Below, piece after piece: positions 27,418 through 40,335 of a stretch of DNA of 64,000 nt (the stretch's first letter is position 1; every line of letters starts with the position of its first letter). This DNA comes from an uncultured Candidatus Saccharibacteria bacterium (GTDB lineage: Bacteria; Patescibacteriota; CAZHWT01): positions 113,889 through 177,888 of the forward strand of contig CAZKPX010000002.1 of the NCBI GenBank assembly GCA_964554805.1. Direction: 5' to 3'. The notes beneath the pieces were generated by a model. The model ran no database searches, had not been told where the DNA came from, and was given only the letters and a program-made list of their open reading frames with translations. The position numbers and the translations under genes were made by a program.

Positions 27418-27473
27418 AGTTGGGGCATTTTGTTAGTCTATGTCATTTTCACTGTTAGATGCTTGGTTGTCAA

Positions 27474-27867
27474 CCTGTCCGCCCACAGGGCGGAACCAGG
27501 GCAGGTTGGATGCGATGGTTGCGCGCCACCGCGCGCGATCTATATTACGCATGCAACTTACCATGCCACAGGGCGGAACCAGGCAGGTTGGATGCGATGG
27601 TTGCGCGCCACCGCGCGCGAATTTATACTACGCATGCAATCTGTCCGCCCAAGGGCGGAACCGGGCAGGTTGGATGCGATGGTTGCGCGCCGCCGCGCGC
27701 GATCTATATTGCGCATGCAACTTACCACGCCATAGGGCGGAACCAGGGCAGGTTGGATGCGATTATTGTTTGCCGCCGCAAACTATTGTTACTATTTTCC
27801 AGCTAAGGCTGGAAAACGCATGCAATCTATCATGCCGTTGGCGGAACTAGGGCGGGTGGGGTGTGAG
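27474..27867. repeat. Tandem array (about 4.7 copies) of an ~82-bp G+C-rich, hairpin-dense unit; the 4th copy carries an internal substitution/insertion
   Basis: Units ...gggcggaaccagggcaggttggatgcgatggttgcgcgccaccgcgcgcgatctatattacgcatgcaa... repeat head-to-tail; each has tccgccc/gggcgga and gcgcgc/gcgcgc hairpins. Confidence 0.85.
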
Positions 27868-28799: not shown

Positions 28800-28885
28800 T
28801 GGTGCCGAAGAGAGGATTTGAACCTCCACGCTTTTTACAGCACTACGACCTGAACGTAGCGTGTCTACCGTTCCACCACTTCGGC
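28800..28885 (-). tRNA. tRNA-Leu (CAG), long variable arm, CCA encoded
   Basis: GCCGAAGTGGTGGAACGGTAGACAC-CTACG-TTCAGGT-CGTAG-variable arm-GGAGGTTCAAATCCTCT-CTTCGGCACCA. Confidence 0.8.
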
Positions 28886-28920: not shown

Positions 28921-29100
28921 TTCTGGTGCCGAGGAAAGTAACGTTCGCTTTGCTCTCGGGCTATAGTCACCTTCTATTCGGCTCGTTGGCCGAATAGAAG
29001 GTGACTATAGATGCCCCTACAGCTTGAAGCTGTTGAAGGTTATTACCTGCCCTGACTACCAGGTGTATGTTACCCACCAAGTGAGTAAAATACACCTGGT
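28921..29100. repeat. Left copy of a 180-bp perfect direct repeat (begins tggtgccgaggaaag, mimicking a tRNA-Leu 3' end); contains a 22-bp-stem hairpin
   Basis: Identical by eye, base for base, to 40077-40256. Confidence 0.85.
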
Positions 29101-29196
29101 GCCCTAGATGACTCATCACCATTCGAACACTTTATGGAGTGGCTTAATAGTTTATACCAAGCTTTTCAAAGTGAGGATGATCACTAGAGTCTAAAT

Positions 29197-31105: not shown

Positions 31106-32231
31106 GCGTTCTACCTTTAGACTTAACCAGCTTGAGAAGATCTTCCTCTATCTCATAGACTCTTAGCCTGCCTGTGAGTACACCTAGCCTGTAATTGACG
31201 CCTTCGCTCATCAGTTGCCAGTTGGTGTCCTTTAATTCTTGCTTTATCAGCCTTTCCAAATTCTTTGTACTCCTATATTTGTCTCTATCCGGTTCAGTGT
31301 CCCGGACTGAAAAAGCGGCAGCGCTATAGCGGTCATCGGTTGGGTTTTCAAGGCTGAATTTTGCATATCCCTTGGCTTCAGTGCGCTTAGTCAGCCTTCG
31401 CTCTACTTCGTGGACAGTAGGTTTTTGGATATTGGCGACGTTCTCATATAGGTCTTTGTTGTCTATGCGCTCTTTCATTTCGCGCATAAAGGAGGCCATC
31501 TGCAATGTCTGCTGCTTGGCTTTGAGGAACTCTTGGCCTTGTTTATCGTCAAAGCAGAACAGGACCTTATCTTTTTCAAAGTCTGGATCAGGCACTTTTT
31601 CAGGTTCTTCCTTTAGGTCTAAAACATCTTGGTAGCCATGCTCACAGCTTGAACAAGTATAGGTAGTAATAATACGGCCATCTTCCCGCTTATTAGAGTC
31701 TTCCATGACCTGACTACAGACTGGACAAGACGCTTTAGGTTTCTCCCATAATATGCCGTCATGCCACACAGCCGTTCGCTTACTGCAATCAAGGCAGTCA
31801 AAAAGAAAGACGACCTCTTCCTTTCTCTCTGGCCTAGGGACTAAATCCTTGGAAATAAGCTGAAGATTGTGTGAGCGGCAGTGCTTGCAAGGAGATGACT
31901 TTTTAAGCTGAGCAGACTCAACCTCGTTATCTCTAGCCCTATCTTGCTCCATCCACTCATCTATTGTTGCTTGGCGCTCTTCCCAGCGTTCACCAGCCAC
32001 CCACTCAGTAGCAAACCAATAGTGCAAGCTAAATACTTTGCGAAGCTCAAACTCCGGGTCTTCAATCTCTGGATCTACTTTAGAGAGGTCGTTTTGCTTT
32101 AATTTATTGCACGCCTCAATAATCGTTGCTTCACTTCTGCGACACTTTTCTACAGTAAACCGATCGTATAGGTCTTGGTAATAGGAGGCGTCTTTAAGGT
32201 AGCGCGGTACTGTTTTATTCTTCTGAGTCAT
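31089..32231 (-). CDS. Hypothetical charged protein with two CxxC...CxxC zinc-ribbon modules; 2nd gene of island operon
   Basis: CKHC-(27)-CLDC and CPVC-(19)-CSSC motifs; 380 aa; 17-nt overlaps with neighbours. Confidence 0.45.
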   Translation of the reverse strand: MTQKNKTVPRYLKDASYYQDLYDRFTVEKCRRSEATIIEACNKLKQNDLSKVDPEIEDPEFELRKVFSLHYWFATEWVAGERWEERQATIDEWMEQDRARDNEVESAQLKKSSPCKHCRSHNLQLISKDLVPRPERKEEVVFLFDCLDCSKRTAVWHDGILWEKPKASCPVCSQVMEDSNKREDGRIITTYTCSSCEHGYQDVLDLKEEPEKVPDPDFEKDKVLFCFDDKQGQEFLKAKQQTLQMASFMREMKERIDNKDLYENVANIQKPTVHEVERRLTKRTEAKGYAKFSLENPTDDRYSAAAFSVRDTEPDRDKYRSTKNLERLIKQELKDTNWQLMSEGVNYRLGVLTGRLRVYEIEEDLLKLVKSKGRTHANKP

Positions 32232-33012
32232 TCATCTTATCAACCGCCTGGTTAAACTCGTTAACCAGTTGATTTAATTTGGCCTCATAATCTAAGTCCA
32301 ACTCATCATGGACTATACTTAAGATTAAGTGCATATAATCAAAGGCTATAATTAAACTTTCACTTACCCAATTGTCACTTTCTCCAGCATCAACGAAAAA
32401 GCCATCTTCAGACTCTTTGTAGTAGTTGCTAAAAGACAATGAATCTGAGTGGGTTAAACCTGAAAGCATGGGATACATAGTATCGTAAAAATGTTGTCGC
32501 CCAATAGTCCTGGCCATCTCCCATAGTTTTTTATCAGACCAGCCGAATGCATTATAGTCTTGTCGCCCAAGTATCTCATCTGCAGCAGCATGAATCTCTG
32601 CTACTATTGACTGCCCTGGCCTTGGATTTTCTTCCCTTCTCTTTAACTCTTCAAGAAGCGATTCATGTTTCTCAGCATGCTTGATACTTTGCGAAGCTTT
32701 GACAGGGGCATATTCTATAAATCTAGTTAGCAAGTCATCAGTCTTATCGTTAAAAATGTATTTCATCACCACTGCAAGCTCAAATAGAGATCGTGAAATA
32801 ATTGCAGCATCTTCTCCATTGCCATTGGCGCACAGAGACATGATCGCTATGTGAGACTTAGAGGCCTTAGCTAGCGCAATAGCGGCCACTAACGACCTCC
32901 GGGTGCTCTCGCTCTGCCCGTTGGTCATAATCTCTTCTACTATCTCGTGCATTCTTAAGTGCAGCGAATAAAGCTTTTCGTTTGGATCAGAAGGCGATAT
33001 CTCAATTGGCAT
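32215..33012 (-). CDS. Hypothetical soluble protein with an R-x5-H (HEPN-like) motif; 1st gene of island operon
   Basis: 265 aa; ...EMARTIGRQHFYD... contains R-x5-H; own 5' region of about 260 bp. Confidence 0.4.
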   Translation of the reverse strand: MPIEISPSDPNEKLYSLHLRMHEIVEEIMTNGQSESTRRSLVAAIALAKASKSHIAIMSLCANGNGEDAAIISRSLFELAVVMKYIFNDKTDDLLTRFIEYAPVKASQSIKHAEKHESLLEELKRREENPRPGQSIVAEIHAAADEILGRQDYNAFGWSDKKLWEMARTIGRQHFYDTMYPMLSGLTHSDSLSFSNYYKESEDGFFVDAGESDNWVSESLIIAFDYMHLILSIVHDELDLDYEAKLNQLVNEFNQAVDKMNDSEE

Positions 33013-34213: not shown

Positions 34214-37200
34214 GTGCTGTGCACAACCTCTTTACTTGACCGCATGATTAAAAAACTCGTTGTCTTTACTCTAGCAACTACTGCACTGCTCCTAACTATC
34301 ACCTTCTGGCCAGGCAACAATCTGGTCAAGGACTTCTTTGGCTTCAATCAGCAAGCCAACCCTCAGGATGTGACGGGGGGGCAATTTGATGCCAAACAGC
34401 CTTTAGACGCTACTACTCTGCTCGGTCAAGATGGTCTTTACTACCTTCAAGCAGGCAATCTGGTTGGCACCATCGCCACTGACCGTTTCTCAGCCTATGA
34501 TGACCTGATCGACGAGGGACGCATCCCTGCAAACTCCCGCCTGCTTACTGATCAAGACTTACCACTATCCACTCCCCCAGCTCCTCAGTCTGTTCTGCAA
34601 ACCCAGCCCAACACGCCCAATCTACCCAATCAATCCAGCCTTCAAACCCTGTCATCCTCTACTCTCAACTTAACCCTTCACCATGGCACTCTCACCGGCT
34701 CAGTTATCCAAAATGGCCTCCAAACCAGCCTGATAACCAATGACGCTGGTTTCCTAACTTCTCTACTTAACTTCACCACCGACGACCTGACTCAAGGCAG
34801 CACTAACCGCTACACTCAGTGGCAAACGGTCTTAGGTGGTATTTCCTATACTCAATCCGTTACTATTAGTGGCAATGTAACTTTAACTCAATTCACCTCT
34901 CCCTCTGGTCTCCTCTACACTACCAACACTGGTCTTGTCTCTCAGCTTCCCCTCGGCACCTCTGGCCAGTGCCTCCAGTCCGACACTACTGCTCTGGTTT
35001 GGGGATCGTGCGCTACTGGCACGCTAACTGGCACCGGAACCACGGGACAATTGGCCCTTTTTAGTAGTTCCAGCAGTTTGAGCGGCAGCAATGGCTTGGT
35101 CTGGAATGTCCTAGATGGAGCTTTTGAAATTGACGGTGATGTGGATGTAACTGGCGGCTTCTTGGTGGACGGCAACCCGTTGAGTACGACTCATGTGATT
35201 GAAGGGACTAATCTTTACTGGACCAATGGCCGATTTGATACCCGCTTCGGTACTGCCTTTGGCCCGGCCTTTGATAGCGCCTTTGGTGGCAAGACAACTA
35301 ATGACCTGACTGAGGGCGGTAGCGCTTTGTATTGGACTAATAATCGGTTTGATCTGCGTCTGGCCACTAAGGATACTGATGACTTGACTGAAGGCGAAGA
35401 CAACTTGTACTTTACTCAGCTGCGGGTGTCGGCTAATGCTGATGTAGCCGCTAACACTGCCGCCCGGCATGCGGAGGCGACCGTAGGAGATACGGGAACC
35501 CTGGATCTAACTATTGTGGGACAACACATCACAGGTACAGTTATTCAGTCGGGCATTCAGACGACCTTGATTACCAACGACGCGGCCTTTATTTCTAATC
35601 TAACTGACTTTGATACGGATAACCTAGGTGAGGGAGATGTAAATTTGTATTGGACTAATGATCGGTTCGATACCCGCTTCGGCACCGCCTTCAGTTCGGC
35701 CTTTGGTTCAGCTTTTGACAGCGCTTTCGGTGGCAAGAATACTGATGATCTGGATGAGGGTGAAACGAATCTTTATAGTCAATGGGCCTACAATTCGACT
35801 GCCATTACTTTCGGTGACAGTGTCGGTATTGGGGCTTCATCGGCACCGACAGCTACCTTGGATGTGACGGGTACTTTCAGGGTTAGTGGGGCAGTGACTT
35901 TGGCTAACTACACTACCAACGGTGGTATTTTGTACACCAATGGGTCAGGAGCCTTGTCTCAGCTAGGAGTTGGATCTTCCGGGCAATGTCTGGTGTCGAC
36001 CGGCGGTGTGCCGACTTGGGGGTCGTGCGCTGAGGCGGGAACCATTACTGGCTCTGGCACTGCAGGGCAGTTAACCTTCTTTAGCAGTGGGGACACTATT
36101 ACGGGTAGCGCAGCCTTGGTTTGGGATGGGGTGGAGGAGGCATTGGCCATTGGTGGGGATGTGGATGTGACCGGGGTTATTTCAGGTGATGGATCGGGGT
36201 TGACCGATTTGAGCGGTACAGCCATTACTTCAGGAACGATTCTTAATGCTTGGTTAGTTAACTCCGGCGCTCTGACGGTTAGCGCCGGTACTGGCTTGAG
36301 TGGTGGTGGCAGCACGGCACTGGGTGGGTCGACTACTATTAACTTGGCCAACACGGCAGTTGAAGCTGGTTCGTATGGTTCAGCTACCCATGTAGCCCAC
36401 TTTACGGTTGATGCTCAGGGTCGGTTGACGGCTGCTGGTACCACGGCTATTGCCATCGCCGGTGAAGCTATTTCTTCCGGCACTGTGGCTAATGCTCGGT
36501 TAGTTAATGGCGGTGCTTTGAGCGTTAGTGCCGGTACCGGTTTATCTGGCGGTGGTAGTGTGGCTTTGGGTGGGTCAACAACCATTGATTTGGCTAATAC
36601 GGCAGTTGATGCCGATGACTATGGTTCTGCCTCACAAGTGACCACCTTTACCGTTGATGCCCAAGGCCGATTGACGGCGGCTAACAGCGTCAATATTTCT
36701 ATTAATGCCTCAGCCATTAGCGCTGGTACTGTGGCTATTAACCGCGGCGGCACTAACTCAACTGCTACCCCAACCGCTGGCGGGATTGCTTACGGTACCG
36801 GTAGCGCTTATGCCTTTACTGCGGTTGGCACGGAAGGTCAGTGTTTGATGTCTGATGGTAGCAGTGCTCCAACCTGGGGAACTTGCGGCGAGGCTTTGCC
36901 GTCAGATAACCTTACTGGTTCAGGTGCCAATGGCCAACTGGCCTTCTTTGACGGCACTCACACCCAAACCTCCTCTGCCAGTCTGACTTGGAACGGTTCT
37001 CTGTTGAGTATCACTGGCGGGCTTAGTGTCTCTGGTAGTATCACTTTTGCTAACTTTGCTACAAACTACGGCTTGCTCTACACCAACGCCTCTGGTTTGC
37101 TTCATCAACTAACAACTGGATCGGCGGGTCAATGTCTCAAATCGGGAGTTGGCGGGTCGCTCCTTTGGGATGACTGTGGCGGCGGTGGCCTAGCCGGCGG

Positions 37201-38164
37201 TAGCAATCCTGGAGACATGATCTACTGGAGTGGTAGTGCCTGGGTGCAGCTGGCTGCTGGCCTCGATGGTCAGTCAATGGTCTTTTGTCAGGGCCAGCCT
37301 CGATGGGGCGGGGCTATTCCTGTACTTACCACCAAAGCTGGTACTAATACTACTTGGGAGCAAACAGAGACCGGTGGTATTATCAGCGACAATGGTTGTG
37401 CTGAGATTATTGAGCGGGGAGTGGTTTTCTCTACCTCTCCTAATCCCACCTTGGCTAACGGCGTATCTGTCTCCTCCGACACCACTGATAATTTTGATGT
37501 AGTGGCTCATCCCTTGCCCTCGGATACCACTGTCTACATCCGCGCCTATGCTACCAACGCTGGCGGTACTGGATACGGTAACCAGATCACCGTCAATACT
37601 CCTGAACCTCCGGCCTTTAGTATTGGTGATCCTGGTCCGGCTGGGGGAGTTATCTTCTATGTTAAGCCTAGTTACTCTGACGGTTGGCGCTACCTAGAGG
37701 CTGCCACCGCCGATTACGGCTCCCCTACCACCGTCCAATGGGGTTGTCGTGGCACCTCAGTCCCTGGTTCTGGAGGTACGGCCATTGGCACAGGTAAAGC
37801 CAATACTCTCGCTATTGTGGCTTTCCATGACAATCCAGCCAACTTTGGTGGCAATAATTACTACTCCTTTGGTGGTGATTATGGAACCATAGGTTGTAAC
37901 TCGGCCAACAACGGGGTCGTAGCTGCCAAGCTAGCGACGCAGTTTGTTCAAAACGGCTATGACGACTGGTTCTTGCCTAGCTCAGGTGAACTCAATGAAC
38001 TGTATGACCAGCAAGCAACCGTCGGTGGCTTCGGCGCTACCGATTACTGGAGTAGTTCGGAGTACACGGTGACTACCGCCCGCTACCAGAAGTTCTTTAG
38101 TGGTAACGAGAATGGCGGTAGTAAGAGCAATAGCCTCCGGGTCAGGTTCGTCAGGGCTTTTTAG
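34214..38164 (+). CDS. Giant secreted/surface repeat protein with phage-tail-fibre-like repeats and a C-terminal DUF1566 (Lcl C-terminal)-like domain; putative adhesin
   Basis: 1316 aa; N-terminal signal/TM; 4x [TDDLTEG..NLYWTNxRFDxR..AFDSAFGGK], 4x [SGQCLxS....WGSC], 2x [LVNGGALSVSAGTGLSGGGS...FTVDAQGRLTAA]; C-terminus ...GWRYLEAA...DDWFLPSSGELNELY...DYWSSSEY...SLRVRFVRAF. Confidence 0.7.
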   Translation: MLCTTSLLDRMIKKLVVFTLATTALLLTITFWPGNNLVKDFFGFNQQANPQDVTGGQFDAKQPLDATTLLGQDGLYYLQAGNLVGTIATDRFSAYDDLIDEGRIPANSRLLTDQDLPLSTPPAPQSVLQTQPNTPNLPNQSSLQTLSSSTLNLTLHHGTLTGSVIQNGLQTSLITNDAGFLTSLLNFTTDDLTQGSTNRYTQWQTVLGGISYTQSVTISGNVTLTQFTSPSGLLYTTNTGLVSQLPLGTSGQCLQSDTTALVWGSCATGTLTGTGTTGQLALFSSSSSLSGSNGLVWNVLDGAFEIDGDVDVTGGFLVDGNPLSTTHVIEGTNLYWTNGRFDTRFGTAFGPAFDSAFGGKTTNDLTEGGSALYWTNNRFDLRLATKDTDDLTEGEDNLYFTQLRVSANADVAANTAARHAEATVGDTGTLDLTIVGQHITGTVIQSGIQTTLITNDAAFISNLTDFDTDNLGEGDVNLYWTNDRFDTRFGTAFSSAFGSAFDSAFGGKNTDDLDEGETNLYSQWAYNSTAITFGDSVGIGASSAPTATLDVTGTFRVSGAVTLANYTTNGGILYTNGSGALSQLGVGSSGQCLVSTGGVPTWGSCAEAGTITGSGTAGQLTFFSSGDTITGSAALVWDGVEEALAIGGDVDVTGVISGDGSGLTDLSGTAITSGTILNAWLVNSGALTVSAGTGLSGGGSTALGGSTTINLANTAVEAGSYGSATHVAHFTVDAQGRLTAAGTTAIAIAGEAISSGTVANARLVNGGALSVSAGTGLSGGGSVALGGSTTIDLANTAVDADDYGSASQVTTFTVDAQGRLTAANSVNISINASAISAGTVAINRGGTNSTATPTAGGIAYGTGSAYAFTAVGTEGQCLMSDGSSAPTWGTCGEALPSDNLTGSGANGQLAFFDGTHTQTSSASLTWNGSLLSITGGLSVSGSITFANFATNYGLLYTNASGLLHQLTTGSAGQCLKSGVGGSLLWDDCGGGGLAGGSNPGDMIYWSGSAWVQLAAGLDGQSMVFCQGQPRWGGAIPVLTTKAGTNTTWEQTETGGIISDNGCAEIIERGVVFSTSPNPTLANGVSVSSDTTDNFDVVAHPLPSDTTVYIRAYATNAGGTGYGNQITVNTPEPPAFSIGDPGPAGGVIFYVKPSYSDGWRYLEAATADYGSPTTVQWGCRGTSVPGSGGTAIGTGKANTLAIVAFHDNPANFGGNNYYSFGGDYGTIGCNSANNGVVAAKLATQFVQNGYDDWFLPSSGELNELYDQQATVGGFGATDYWSSSEYTVTTARYQKFFSGNENGGSKSNSLRVRFVRAF

Positions 38165-38204
38165 CTATTTATCTATTTAACTATTTAAACGAAAAAATTT
38201 GACT

Positions 38205-38549
38205 ATGGCCCTTTATTACGATCTTCCTGTTTTCCGTGATACCTACCAACTTTCCCTTCTCATTTTTTCCTACACTCAAGAATTTCCCAGAGAATATAAA
38301 TTCACCCTCGGTCAAGACATGAAGCGAGACACCATTCAGCTGATGCGCAGCATCTACCGGGCCAATAAAACTAAAGACAAAACCGAGTATCTCAACGACT
38401 TTTTGGACGACTTTGAGCTGCTTAAGCTCCAAATTCGCCTAGCTACTGATCTTAAAATCTTGCCGGTAAAGAATCAGGCCCAGCTGGCGCTTCACTTGGA
38501 ATCCATCGGCAAGCAGGTCACCGCCTGGCGCAACGCTGCGACCCACTAG
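38205..38549 (+). CDS. Four-helix-bundle protein (Avd / 23S-rRNA-IVS-protein-like)
   Basis: About 114 aa, predicted all-helical; MALYYDLPVFRDTYQLSLLIF... resembles the TIGR02436 family. Confidence 0.45.
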   Translation: MALYYDLPVFRDTYQLSLLIFSYTQEFPREYKFTLGQDMKRDTIQLMRSIYRANKTKDKTEYLNDFLDDFELLKLQIRLATDLKILPVKNQAQLALHLESIGKQVTAWRNAATH

Positions 38550-38685
38550 TCACCCCTTTTCCTTTGCTTGGTTGATGGGATATACTGAAGTAGCCAGAAT
38601 CTGCTGGGTCATGGCCTAGTAGAGTGAGCGTTCGTATTAGTCTAAAAGCGGCATAGGGACTGTCCCTCGTCATGCCTTTTAAAGG

Positions 38686-40119
38686 TTGGACGAATCAGTT
38701 GATTCTGATTGTATATTTAGGGAAGAAGGACGCTCAGCCAAGACAATTGCTGGTCGGCCGAAGCTGCTTGATTTACTCAATTACTGCCGGAAGAATAAGA
38801 AGATTATTGATAGTGTTATTGTTTATCGCTTGGATCGCATCTCCAGACAAACGGCAGACTATCTCACAATTAGAACTAAATTAGCCGAGAGCGGTATTAA
38901 TCTCATATCTGCCACCGAGCCGACAGGTAACAGCCCTGCTGAAAAGATGATTGAGACAATCTTGGCCAGCTTTGCTCAGTTGGATAATGACGTAAAGAGC
39001 GAGCGGTCTAAAAACGGCCTTCAGGCTCGCTTCAAAGCTGGCTTGAAGTCTTCTTCTGTGCCGATTGGATACCTGGCTAAAAATGGTTTTGCCATCAAAG
39101 ACCCTGATACTTTTGAATATATAAAGCATGGTTGGGAAATGTTAGCCACAGGTAAAGACAGTCTGCAGGATGTGATGCACTATCTTAATGAGAATGGTGT
39201 TCGGATGCGGCAAAAAGGTAAAGCAAACCTCATCAGCAAGCAATCTGTGTCAAGAATCTACAGAAACAAATTTTACTGCGGCATATTGGTATCTAAAAAG
39301 TATGGCATGGAAGTTAGCGGGCAGCATCAGCCGATGATCAATGAAAGTATGTTTTATGCGGTGCAGGCCATGATAGATAATCGCGGTCCAAATAGGTCAG
39401 GACACAAGCTTAGATATATTCTGGATCACCCTGAATTCCCCTTGCGGCGCTTTATGATGTGCGGTATATGCGATAAGCCTATGACAGGTGGATTTAGCAA
39501 GGGTAAAAACCAGCGATATGGCTATTATTTCTGCGCTAATCGTTGTGGTGCACCATCATCAATCAATATAAACAATATGGAAGTGTCGGTTATAAGTAAT
39601 CTCAAAGACCTTGAACCAACCGCTCGGTTGTTTGAGAAGGTTTCAAAAAGCCTGCGCCAAAAATACATCTCACGAATGGGCAAATTTCAAACAGCGGCTC
39701 AGGACAAGGTAGCAGTCATTGAAGCAGTTAAAGAAACACGACAATCACTTATCGAAAAGAACCTAGCTGGTTTATATTCTGATGAGTTATTCAGGGAGCA
39801 ACTAGCGGTTCTAGACCAAAAACTAGCTGATGCGTACGCGGCACAATCACGAGCCAATCTGGCAAATTACAATTATGAGGTGTTATTTAAGTTTATAGAA
39901 GAAAAATTGGCACATATTGCCAAGACATACGAGGAATCAACGCTATCTCAGAAAAAAGCATTGCTGTGTTCGATATTCCCTTCTGGTATGCGCTGGATGT
40001 ACCCAGGCATTTCGAACACTGAGATTTCACCGTGGTATCAAGTAATTCAAGGTGTTAATAAGCTTGATGTCACACTTGGTGCCGAGGAAAGTAACGTTCG
40101 CTTTGCTCTCGGGCTATAG
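38686..40119 (+). CDS. Large serine recombinase (resolvase/recombinase domain + zinc-ribbon); N-terminal catalytic motif missing or degraded
   Basis: ...IFREEGRSAKTIAGRPKLLDLL...VIVYRLDRISRQ... (resolvase core), recombinase domain, C..C...C..C ribbon, coiled-coil tail; called ORF begins with TTG; upstream frames carry only a corrupted RVS-like remnant with stop and frameshift. Confidence 0.7.
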   Translation: MDESVDSDCIFREEGRSAKTIAGRPKLLDLLNYCRKNKKIIDSVIVYRLDRISRQTADYLTIRTKLAESGINLISATEPTGNSPAEKMIETILASFAQLDNDVKSERSKNGLQARFKAGLKSSSVPIGYLAKNGFAIKDPDTFEYIKHGWEMLATGKDSLQDVMHYLNENGVRMRQKGKANLISKQSVSRIYRNKFYCGILVSKKYGMEVSGQHQPMINESMFYAVQAMIDNRGPNRSGHKLRYILDHPEFPLRRFMMCGICDKPMTGGFSKGKNQRYGYYFCANRCGAPSSININNMEVSVISNLKDLEPTARLFEKVSKSLRQKYISRMGKFQTAAQDKVAVIEAVKETRQSLIEKNLAGLYSDELFREQLAVLDQKLADAYAAQSRANLANYNYEVLFKFIEEKLAHIAKTYEESTLSQKKALLCSIFPSGMRWMYPGISNTEISPWYQVIQGVNKLDVTLGAEESNVRFALGL

Positions 40120-40256
40120 TCACCTTCTATTCGGCTCGTTGGCCGAATAGAAGGTGACTATAGATGCCCCTACAGCTTGAAGCTGTTGAAGGTTATTACC
40201 TGCCCTGACTACCAGGTGTATGTTACCCACCAAGTGAGTAAAATACACCTGGTGCC
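40077..40256. repeat. Right copy of the 180-bp direct repeat; overlaps the recombinase 3' end and abuts tRNA-Leu(GAG)
   Basis: Identical to 28921-29100. Confidence 0.85.
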
Positions 40257-40335
40257 GAGGAAAGGAGTTGAACCTTCACGCTTTTTACGGCACTACCACC
40301 TCAAGGTAGCGTGTCTACCATTCCACCACCTCGGC
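40250..40335 (-). tRNA. tRNA-Leu (GAG), long variable arm, CCA encoded
   Basis: GCCGAGGTGGTGGAATGGTAGACAC-CTACC-TTGAGGT-GGTAG-variable arm-GAAGGTTCAACTCCTTT-CCTCGGCACCA. Confidence 0.8.

Follow-up and report, generated by a model that had tools for sequence, protein, structure and literature searches.

The 64-kb stretch of contig CAZKPX010000002.1 analyzed here (64,000 nucleotides, nt; hereafter the window) encodes a 1,316-residue protein that we read as a membrane-anchored surface fiber with a DUF1566 head of the kind targeted by diversity-generating retroelements (DGRs). We consider it likely that a deletion removed the template repeat (TR) and reverse transcriptase (RT) of its cassette, and that the fiber tip is now frozen. 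An earlier first-pass annotation had remarked that DUF1566 is a recurrent DGR target domain, and this proved the key lead: an intact avd gene, a spacer RNA element, and a flank of the variable-repeat (VR) type lie directly downstream. The window is part of a 270,561-bp NCBI contig that encodes the identical protein (P0001); the searches for RT and TR covered the window. The features that carry this reading are as follows, with protein positions in amino acids (aa).

34214..38164, + strand: open reading frame (ORF) of the surface fiber protein and DGR-type variable protein, 1316 aa from GTG (ORF calling)
37277..37600, + strand: FN3-like beta-sandwich, aa ~1022–1129 (AlphaFold2 model, Foldseek, Pfam domains of homologues)
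37613..38161, + strand: DUF1566/Lcl_C C-type-lectin-like head, aa 1134–1316, 183 residues (Pfam, PHROG, fold match)
38020..38164, + strand: VR-equivalent segment (register with the TRs of 21 related DGRs)
38154..38187, + strand: VR-type 3′ flank, GGGCTTTTTA, which resembles an initiation-of-mutagenic-homing (IMH) sequence, then ATTTATCTATTTAACnATTTA (alignment with 11 relatives)
38188..38198, + strand: site of the relatives' GC hairpin, where the window has AACGAAAAAAT instead (alignment)
38205..38549, + strand: avd (accessory variability determinant), intact, 114 aa from ATG (profiles, homologues)
38579..38699, + strand: 5′ part of the DGR RNA spacer, the avd-to-TR region (covariance model)

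Profile, family, and fold comparisons agreed on the C-terminal head. Pfam PF07603 (Lcl_C/DUF1566) matched aa 1240–1314 at 35.1 bits, and phrog_4245 spanned aa 1134–1316 (E = 2e-21); the strings that the first-pass annotation had quoted as the DUF1566 consensus are present, and with the 8q4e fold match described below its C-terminal assignment stands. With the last 312 aa as query, 2,333 homologues were returned (down to E = 4e-60), mainly DUF1566 proteins, most of them preceded by an FN3-type domain and many from Bacteroidota. An AlphaFold2 model of aa 1005–1316, for which 94 homologues were used, reached a mean predicted local distance difference test (pLDDT) score of 91.3 and comprised an FN3-like sandwich followed by an Lcl-like head. 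Foldseek placed aa ~1022–1129 among many FN3 domains (E = 1e-4 to 1e-3), and the best Protein Data Bank (PDB) match of the head was 8q4e, the C-terminal domain of Legionella Lcl (E = 5e-6; target-normalized template-modeling score 0.74). The same entry, labeled HbP1 in the sequence file, was the sole match when the whole protein was searched against PDB sequences (E = 4e-4, head only). In Lcl this C-type-lectin-like domain is trimeric, binds glycosaminoglycans, and sits as a head on a fibrous stalk (PMC11162425). A tblastn search of the head domain against phages gave no match.

The avd gene lies on the same strand as the fiber gene, 40 nt past its stop codon. Its product matched Pfam bAvd (E = 4e-20) and phrog_3206, "Avd protein of DGR" (E = 2e-22), scored 67.9 bits against NCBIfam DivGenRetAVD, under the 80-bit cutoff, and resembles annotated Avd genes of Bacteroides and Burkholderia phages. 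A metagenome scan recovered 80 loci with Avd proteins 54–75% identical to it, mostly 63–71%. In these loci a DUF1566 gene ends ~50 nt ahead of avd, which is followed by a spacer of ~190 nt, a TR of ~140 nt, and an RT of 399–417 aa. Sequence for 2 kb or more downstream of avd was available at 55 related loci, and in 46 of them the RT came no more than 3 kb after avd. Wherever tested (21 of 21 loci), the TR in the spacer matched the 3′ end of the target at 76–89% identity, and nearly all mismatches lay at TR adenines (e.g., 16/16, 27/27, and 25/25). Judged by sequence, the related loci look like active DGRs and belong to the DUF1566/CLec2 class (category "d"; PMC5758913). Targets beside the nearest Avd relatives measure 300–610 aa, so that the 1316-aa window protein is 2–4 times longer, and its stalk is shared with none of the 92 loci of Avd relatives.

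The remaining 9 of the 55 loci have no RT (L002, L019, L029, L050, L078, L084, L085, L095, and L096), and avd is truncated in several; decayed cassettes seem to be common in this DGR clade. One of these loci, L002 (8711–10923, on the Spirochaetaceae metagenome-assembled chromosome OZ246985.1), is a second RT-less remnant. It carries a 603-aa DUF1566 protein with a head 47% identical to that of the window, followed by an interrupted avd (47% identity, ORF ending at 83 aa) and a fragment resembling an insertion-sequence transposase, with neither TR, RT, nor spacer element.

The last ~145 nt of the fiber gene run in register, codon for codon, with the TRs of 21 of 21 relatives; the varied codons are those of aa 1284–1309 (nt 38063–38140). 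At the 15 positions where the TR consensus has AAY (Asn) codons, the window keeps Asn 3 times and has another residue 11 times (Y,T,V,T,T,K,S,G,G,S,S,L). Most of the scaffold (W-S-S-S-E, A, Q, F, G, K, and V-R-x-V-R-x-F) is retained, and the pattern is that of the relatives' VR proteins, YWSSSE-5x-AW-x-Q-x-F-xx-G-x-Q-4x-K-5x-VRAVRAF.

Beyond the variable codons, the 34-nt flank GGGCTTTTTAGCTATTTATCTATTTAACTATTTA (38154–38187) is invariant or near-invariant across the window and the VR flanks of 11 relatives, whose TR copies read GGGATTTT... where the VR flank has its own version. All 11 aligned relatives carry a GC hairpin after the VR (CCGC-GAA-GCGG or GGGGC-GAA-GCCCC), which the window lacks; in phage BPP-1, efficient retrohoming depends on a hairpin/cruciform of this kind (PMC3240598). 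In relatives (L024, 3360–3415; L034, 4790–4855), a strictly conserved AT-rich motif of 30 nt, TTTTTAACnATTTATCTATTTAACnATTTA, comes after the VR and is itself followed by the GC hairpin, whose stems covary and whose loop contains GAA. Motif and hairpin together form a candidate target-recognition module.

Past avd, the spacer RNA is partly preserved. A covariance model built from 15 relatives, with the window left out, matched 38579–38699 (49.8 bits, E = 3.5e-10). The element consists of a conserved hairpin at 38593–38629, with compensatory changes in 10 of 14 pairs, and conserved single-stranded blocks to ~38665; the hairpin also occurs in relatives, for instance at L020 1110–1146. Positions 1–38 of the Rfam family RT-7 (RF03028) match 38593–38629 (E = 6e-4; 23–25 bits, against a gathering score of 116.8). 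At the gathering threshold Rfam returned tRNAs only, and a cutoff of E ≤ 10 still brought no RT-7 match in the relative L024. RT-7 has been described among RT-associated motifs, next to RT genes and possibly within DGRs (Weinberg et al. 2017, PMC5737381), and the present match suggests that it represents the 5′ portion of a DGR RNA.

The two components that would make such a cassette work were not found in the 64 kb. No second copy of 37600–38200 is present within the 64 kb (blastn, word size 7), and a repeat search of 33–45 kb returned intragenic repeats only. No RT appeared in the 64 kb, either by a six-frame scan for YxDD or by tblastn with five related DGR RTs, which produced chance-level matches only. 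Similarity to the relatives' spacers fades past ~38665, homology ends ~165 nt after avd, and the sequence continues into a truncated gene.

38686..40119, + strand: large serine recombinase, 5′-truncated (Pfam, PHROG, PDB homology)

Recombinase homology sets in at nt ~38713, which corresponds to position 34 of the Resolvase profile and residue 46 of PDB 3guv; roughly the first 35–45 residues, including the catalytic-Ser segment, are lacking. No N-terminal remnant was found upstream in any frame, where stops and DGR spacer occur. The first 9 codons of the recombinase ORF stem from the DGR spacer and its last 14 lie within a 180-bp repeat described below. The enzyme is of the phage type (phrog_95), and no relatives of it were found in viral contigs. 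The spacer homology stops here and the recombinase is truncated with no N-terminal remnant; the simplest explanation is a single deletion that took both TR and RT as well as the 5′ end of the recombinase. The avd–recombinase junction is real and no assembly artifact, since two independent assemblies (SRR16798008 and SRR16798009) are 100% identical to window positions 37706–40256 and 37753–40106, VR included.

We propose the following course of events. The protein would be a cell-surface fiber in which an N-terminal anchor or signal leads into a Gly/Thr/Ser-rich repetitive stalk of ~1000 residues, topped by the FN3-like domain and a terminal DUF1566/Lcl_C lectin-like head that is predicted to bind a ligand. 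In intact relatives, the RT together with Avd would copy the TR into cDNA with its adenines randomized, and the product would overwrite the last ~140 nt of the target gene, varying about 15–20 surface residues. In the window lineage, the deletion would have cut out TR and RT along with the 5′ end of the gene for the island's serine recombinase. What survives is the target, avd in intact form, and ~120 nt from the beginning of the DGR RNA spacer; the post-VR GC hairpin is gone as well. The tip would then be a frozen, once-diversified allele, carried on an immobilized tRNA-Leu island.

Several observations weigh against this account. The PF07603 score barely exceeds its threshold (35.1 vs. 34.9). 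Residues that are invariant in the relatives' scaffold are altered in the window (AW to AR, GxQ to GxE, and VRAVRAF to VRFVRAF), which may reflect drift or a different, lost TR. Measured against the noncognate consensus TR, the adenine bias of the differences was not significant (24/48 at A vs. 25/64 at non-A positions, P = 0.26), nor was the retention of third-position pyrimidines at AAY sites (12/15, P = 0.28), and the AAY-equivalent positions vary in non-DGR DUF1566 proteins too. With no cognate TR in the 64 kb, adenine-specific mutagenesis of the window allele is an inference. The avd gene is still intact, and the TR and RT search spans 64 of at least 270 kb of the contig. The SRR16798008 and SRR16798009 assemblies are consensus sequences of sister runs, in which minority VR variants would be hidden.

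These last points bear on the strongest alternative: a complete DGR outside the 64-kb window may still diversify the target in trans, the local cassette being just a copy, whether duplicated or decayed. Some DGRs are known to act on remote targets or on several. The intact avd, the perfectly conserved IMH-like flank of VR type, and the inspection of 64 kb out of a 270,561-bp contig would all suit such an arrangement. We nevertheless hold it to be distinctly unlikely. The hairpin that all 11 aligned relatives carry after the VR, and that BPP-1 needs for efficient retrohoming (PMC3240598), is missing; the VR is identical in the two separate run assemblies; and scaffold codons that stay unchanged in active relatives differ at non-adenine bases at the three altered positions (for example, TGG to CGC and CAG to GAG). 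We favor a frozen allele over diversification in trans because TR and RT are absent from the 64 kb, the post-VR hairpin is lost, and the scaffold has changed at non-adenine bases.

The N-terminal part of the protein comprises an export or anchor segment and a three-part stalk.

34244..34312, + strand: N-terminal signal peptide or signal anchor, aa 11–33, MIKKLVVFTLATTALLLTITFWP (Kyte–Doolittle)
34655..36193, + strand: stalk part 1, two super-repeats, aa 148–320 and 427–660 (self-comparison, motif positions)
36209..36703, + strand: stalk part 2, tandem 83-aa Gly/Ser/Thr-rich repeat, units ending ...FTVDAQGRLTAA (self-comparison, DNA repeat)
36725..37264, + strand: stalk part 3, GQCL...W..C modules 3 and 4, aa 838–928 and 931–1017 (self-comparison)

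A start at the in-frame ATG at 34244 (MIKKLVVF...), which would give a product of 1306 aa, is more likely than one at the GTG. The only strongly hydrophobic segment of the protein is aa 11–33 (Kyte–Doolittle maximum 1.85), preceded by KK; a clear cleavage site was not seen in it, and the segment is consistent, by its composition, with either a signal peptide or a signal anchor. The first-pass annotation had placed a signal or anchor sequence at the N terminus, with which this single segment agrees. Alignments of the nearest homologues begin at aa 12–18 (at aa 12–63 for the nearest full-length relatives), and the N-terminal anchor is common to them.

The stalk is built from nested repeats, which self-comparison placed far above chance. 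Its first part holds two super-repeats (aa 148–320 vs. 427–660, 38% identity, E = 3e-47) with six (T/D)xDLxEGxxNLY(W/F)T units and two GQCL...W..C modules. Across the protein there are four modules of ~90–110 aa with GQCLxS...W..C (aa 210–320, 549–660, 838–928, and 931–1017; E = 1e-15 to 1e-37). Residues 666–748 and 748–830 form a tandem 83-aa repeat (72% identity, E = 1e-40), visible in the DNA as a 223-nt repeat (D1) at 36214/36460. The EGxxNLY core motif occurs six times (aa 194, 331, 367, 393, 473, and 515), its longer form NLYWTNxRFDxR three times, and AFDSAFGGK twice; the repeats reported earlier are thus real, and the count of four given for the long tail-fiber-like motif was approximate. 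An AlphaFold2 monomer model of stalk aa 150–660 was uninformative (mean pLDDT 50.5). The stalk is probably oligomeric, and the GC profile along the gene showed no step marking a fusion point between stalk and head.

Relatives of the stalk place it closer to cellular fibers than to a phage. The first-pass annotation had likened the repeats to phage tail-fiber modules and named the family Phage_fiber_2 (PF03406). That profile did not match the protein even at E ≤ 10, and Lcl_C was the sole Pfam family returned, so that of the two profiles by which the earlier proposal was to be judged, DUF1566 is present and the tail-fiber repeat is not. A looser kinship to fibers did hold up. A further 130 full-protein homologues (E ≤ 0.001) align within aa 1–1000 only, and several of the stalk homologues bear Peptidase_S74, Mtd_N, BppL_N, or YadA_stalk domains, hallmarks of phage fibers or trimeric adhesins. 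Among GenBank phages, the stalk repeats matched "structural proteins" of T4-like cyanophages only (27–30% identity, E about 1e-6); among viral contigs, one locus matched; and the repeats also match genomes of the candidate phyla radiation. The nearest full-length relatives are 38–47% identical and have no DUF1566; two have EPTP matches and the rest no Pfam domain. Two of these relatives, P0008 and P0009, are chromosomal and adjoin nusA/infB, rpsO/pnp, or metabolic genes. The corresponding loci are L112 (4747–9822) and L113 (8001–11459); P0008 has EPTP-type repeats, P0009 has no recognizable C-terminal domain, and in L113 a second giant ORF (1046 aa) lies immediately downstream. Because the closest full-length relatives are chromosomal and end in other C-terminal regions, the stalk is a member of a cellular surface-fiber family with exchangeable tips, its repeats being related to those of phage fibers.

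The chromosomal surroundings include uvrA, uvrB, uvrC, class I ribonucleotide reductase genes, an amylase, iPGM, and histidine kinases; UvrB is 62–65% identical to proteins of Chloroflexota/Dehalococcoidia, with further relatives at 81–90%. By this measure the chromosome most resembles Chloroflexota, and a host of that kind was preferred to the patescibacterial one that the stalk-repeat matches to the candidate phyla radiation would suggest. Within this setting the whole locus lies in a repeat-bounded segment.

28924..29103, unstranded: perfect 180-bp direct repeat, left copy; tRNA-Leu(cag) at 28800–28885 lies 38 nt away
40077..40256, unstranded: right copy of the perfect 180-bp direct repeat, running into tRNA-Leu(gag) at 40250–40335

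The two copies bound a segment of ~11.15 kb, and the first 15 nt of the repeat duplicate the 3′ end of tRNA-Leu(gag). The arrangement looks like the attL and attR sites of an integrative island, or like two tandem integrations. Given the perfect repeats and the intact avd, integration of the island and the deletion are both suggested to be recent. Each 180-bp repeat holds a 50-nt near-perfect palindrome (CTATAGTCACCTTCTATTCGGC...GCCGAATAGAAGGTGACTATAG; 28961–29010 and 40114–40163) that could be a terminator or a recombination site. The five other ORFs of the island gave no PHROG match with an assigned function and no significant PADLOC match. One of them encodes a DUF5677 protein (32215–33012, − strand; E = 3e-27), standing among four island ORFs with no family match; it has two weak PHROG matches, both to families of unknown function, and a weak match (E = 0.004) to the PADLOC candidate PDC-S52. 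Just upstream of the tRNA cluster, 27500–27747 contains three tandem copies of an 82-nt GC-rich unit, 69–95% identical, which overlap small ORFs at 27430–27850.

The first-pass annotation had also offered a phage tail-fiber-derived receptor-binding protein as a candidate identity, and on that view the gene would belong to a prophage, possibly a defective one. The repeats shared with Peptidase_S74, Mtd_N, and BppL_N proteins, and weakly with cyanophage structural proteins, agree with such an origin, as does the location on an integrated island whose large serine recombinase is of the phage type; DGRs, moreover, are often phage-borne. The rest of the evidence makes it very improbable. An N-terminal hydrophobic anchor or signal is no feature of tail fibers, and PF03406 gives no match; the island measures just ~11 kb, its other ORFs match no PHROG of assigned function, and no capsid, tail, or terminase gene was recognized among the ORFs scanned against Pfam. 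The nearest full-length relatives, chromosomal in context, share the anchor and carry other C-terminal heads, and the phage collection yielded neither a DNA match to the locus (megablast) nor a match to the head domain.

A reading of the protein as a common DUF1566 adhesin with no history as a DGR target, and of avd as its neighbor by chance, is close to refuted: most of the 2,333 DUF1566 homologues are probably not DGR targets and no TR/VR pair can be demonstrated in the window, but gene order, spacing, and strand are those of dozens of active cassettes, the 34-nt post-stop flank matches the relatives' VRs and not their TRs, the codons stay in step with the TRs, and the window still has the spacer RNA element.

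Returning to the anchored fiber with a frozen DGR-target tip, a wider scenario can be sketched, which we regard as speculative and more doubtful than not: a cellular, membrane-anchored adhesin resembling a tail fiber would have gained a DGR-diversified lectin tip on a small tRNA-Leu island, and one deletion, taking TR, RT, and the recombinase active site at once, would then have locked a selected binding variant and immobilized the island. If so, the locus would be a natural case of "diversify, select, then switch off," and RT-less remnants made of a target plus avd (9 of 55 loci, L002 included) would represent a recurrent evolutionary end-state and not assembly noise.

The findings do not overturn current understanding; they add to it in several ways. 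An unannotated giant "hypothetical protein" becomes a surface fiber with a predicted ligand-binding tip of the DUF1566 DGR-target class. The death of a DGR cassette is mapped, with a breakpoint ~165 nt past avd and with the TR, RT, and post-VR hairpin lost. Because standard DGR finders seek an RT together with a TR/VR pair, they miss RT-less remnants such as this one. Such remnants mark proteins with tips recently under diversifying pressure, and these proteins are therefore good candidates, in poorly known lineages, for adhesins that recognize a host or partner. The annotation of DGR RNAs may also benefit from the spacer hairpin (matching the 5′ end of RT-7) and from the clade's 34-nt VR flank motif.

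Comparison with known systems locates the protein more precisely. It resembles Legionella pneumophila Lcl (8q4e; PMC11162425) in its "lollipop" design, with an N-terminally anchored, long repetitive stalk and a DUF1566 lectin-like head. It differs in that the window stalk has no collagen-like GXY repeats and the heads are 24% identical; Lcl itself is no DGR target, and trimerization and glycan binding are features of Lcl. With the DGR of Bordetella phage BPP-1 (Mtd, Avd, TR, and Brt), the locus shares an Avd homologue, an IMH-like flank, and a variable C terminus in the lectin-fold receptor-binding tip of a fiber, and some stalk homologues carry Mtd_N; unlike that system, it has a head of the DUF1566 (CLec2) type and not of the Mtd fold, a cellular context, and an incomplete cassette. 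As to Rfam RT-7 (RF03028), the first 38 model positions (GCCAGA...GUCAaGGC...AGaGUGC) are found in the window, whereas the remaining ~150 have no counterpart because the region was deleted.

The closest likeness is to the DUF1566/CLec2 class, an established class of DGR targets (category "d," 14% of DGRs; Wu et al. 2018, PMC5758913) whose prototype is Legionella LdtA. Shared with that class are a C-terminal DUF1566-type domain with avd directly downstream, a variable segment in the last ~45 residues that ends in ...VRxVRAF, surface exposure with an N-terminal export signal (predicted in the window protein), and appended adhesion-type domains, which about half of the class possesses. The window departs from the class in having neither TR nor RT in its 64 kb and in the loss of the post-VR hairpin. 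The window protein is thus a DUF1566-class DGR variable protein in a decayed cassette, unusual for its stalk of ~1000 residues.

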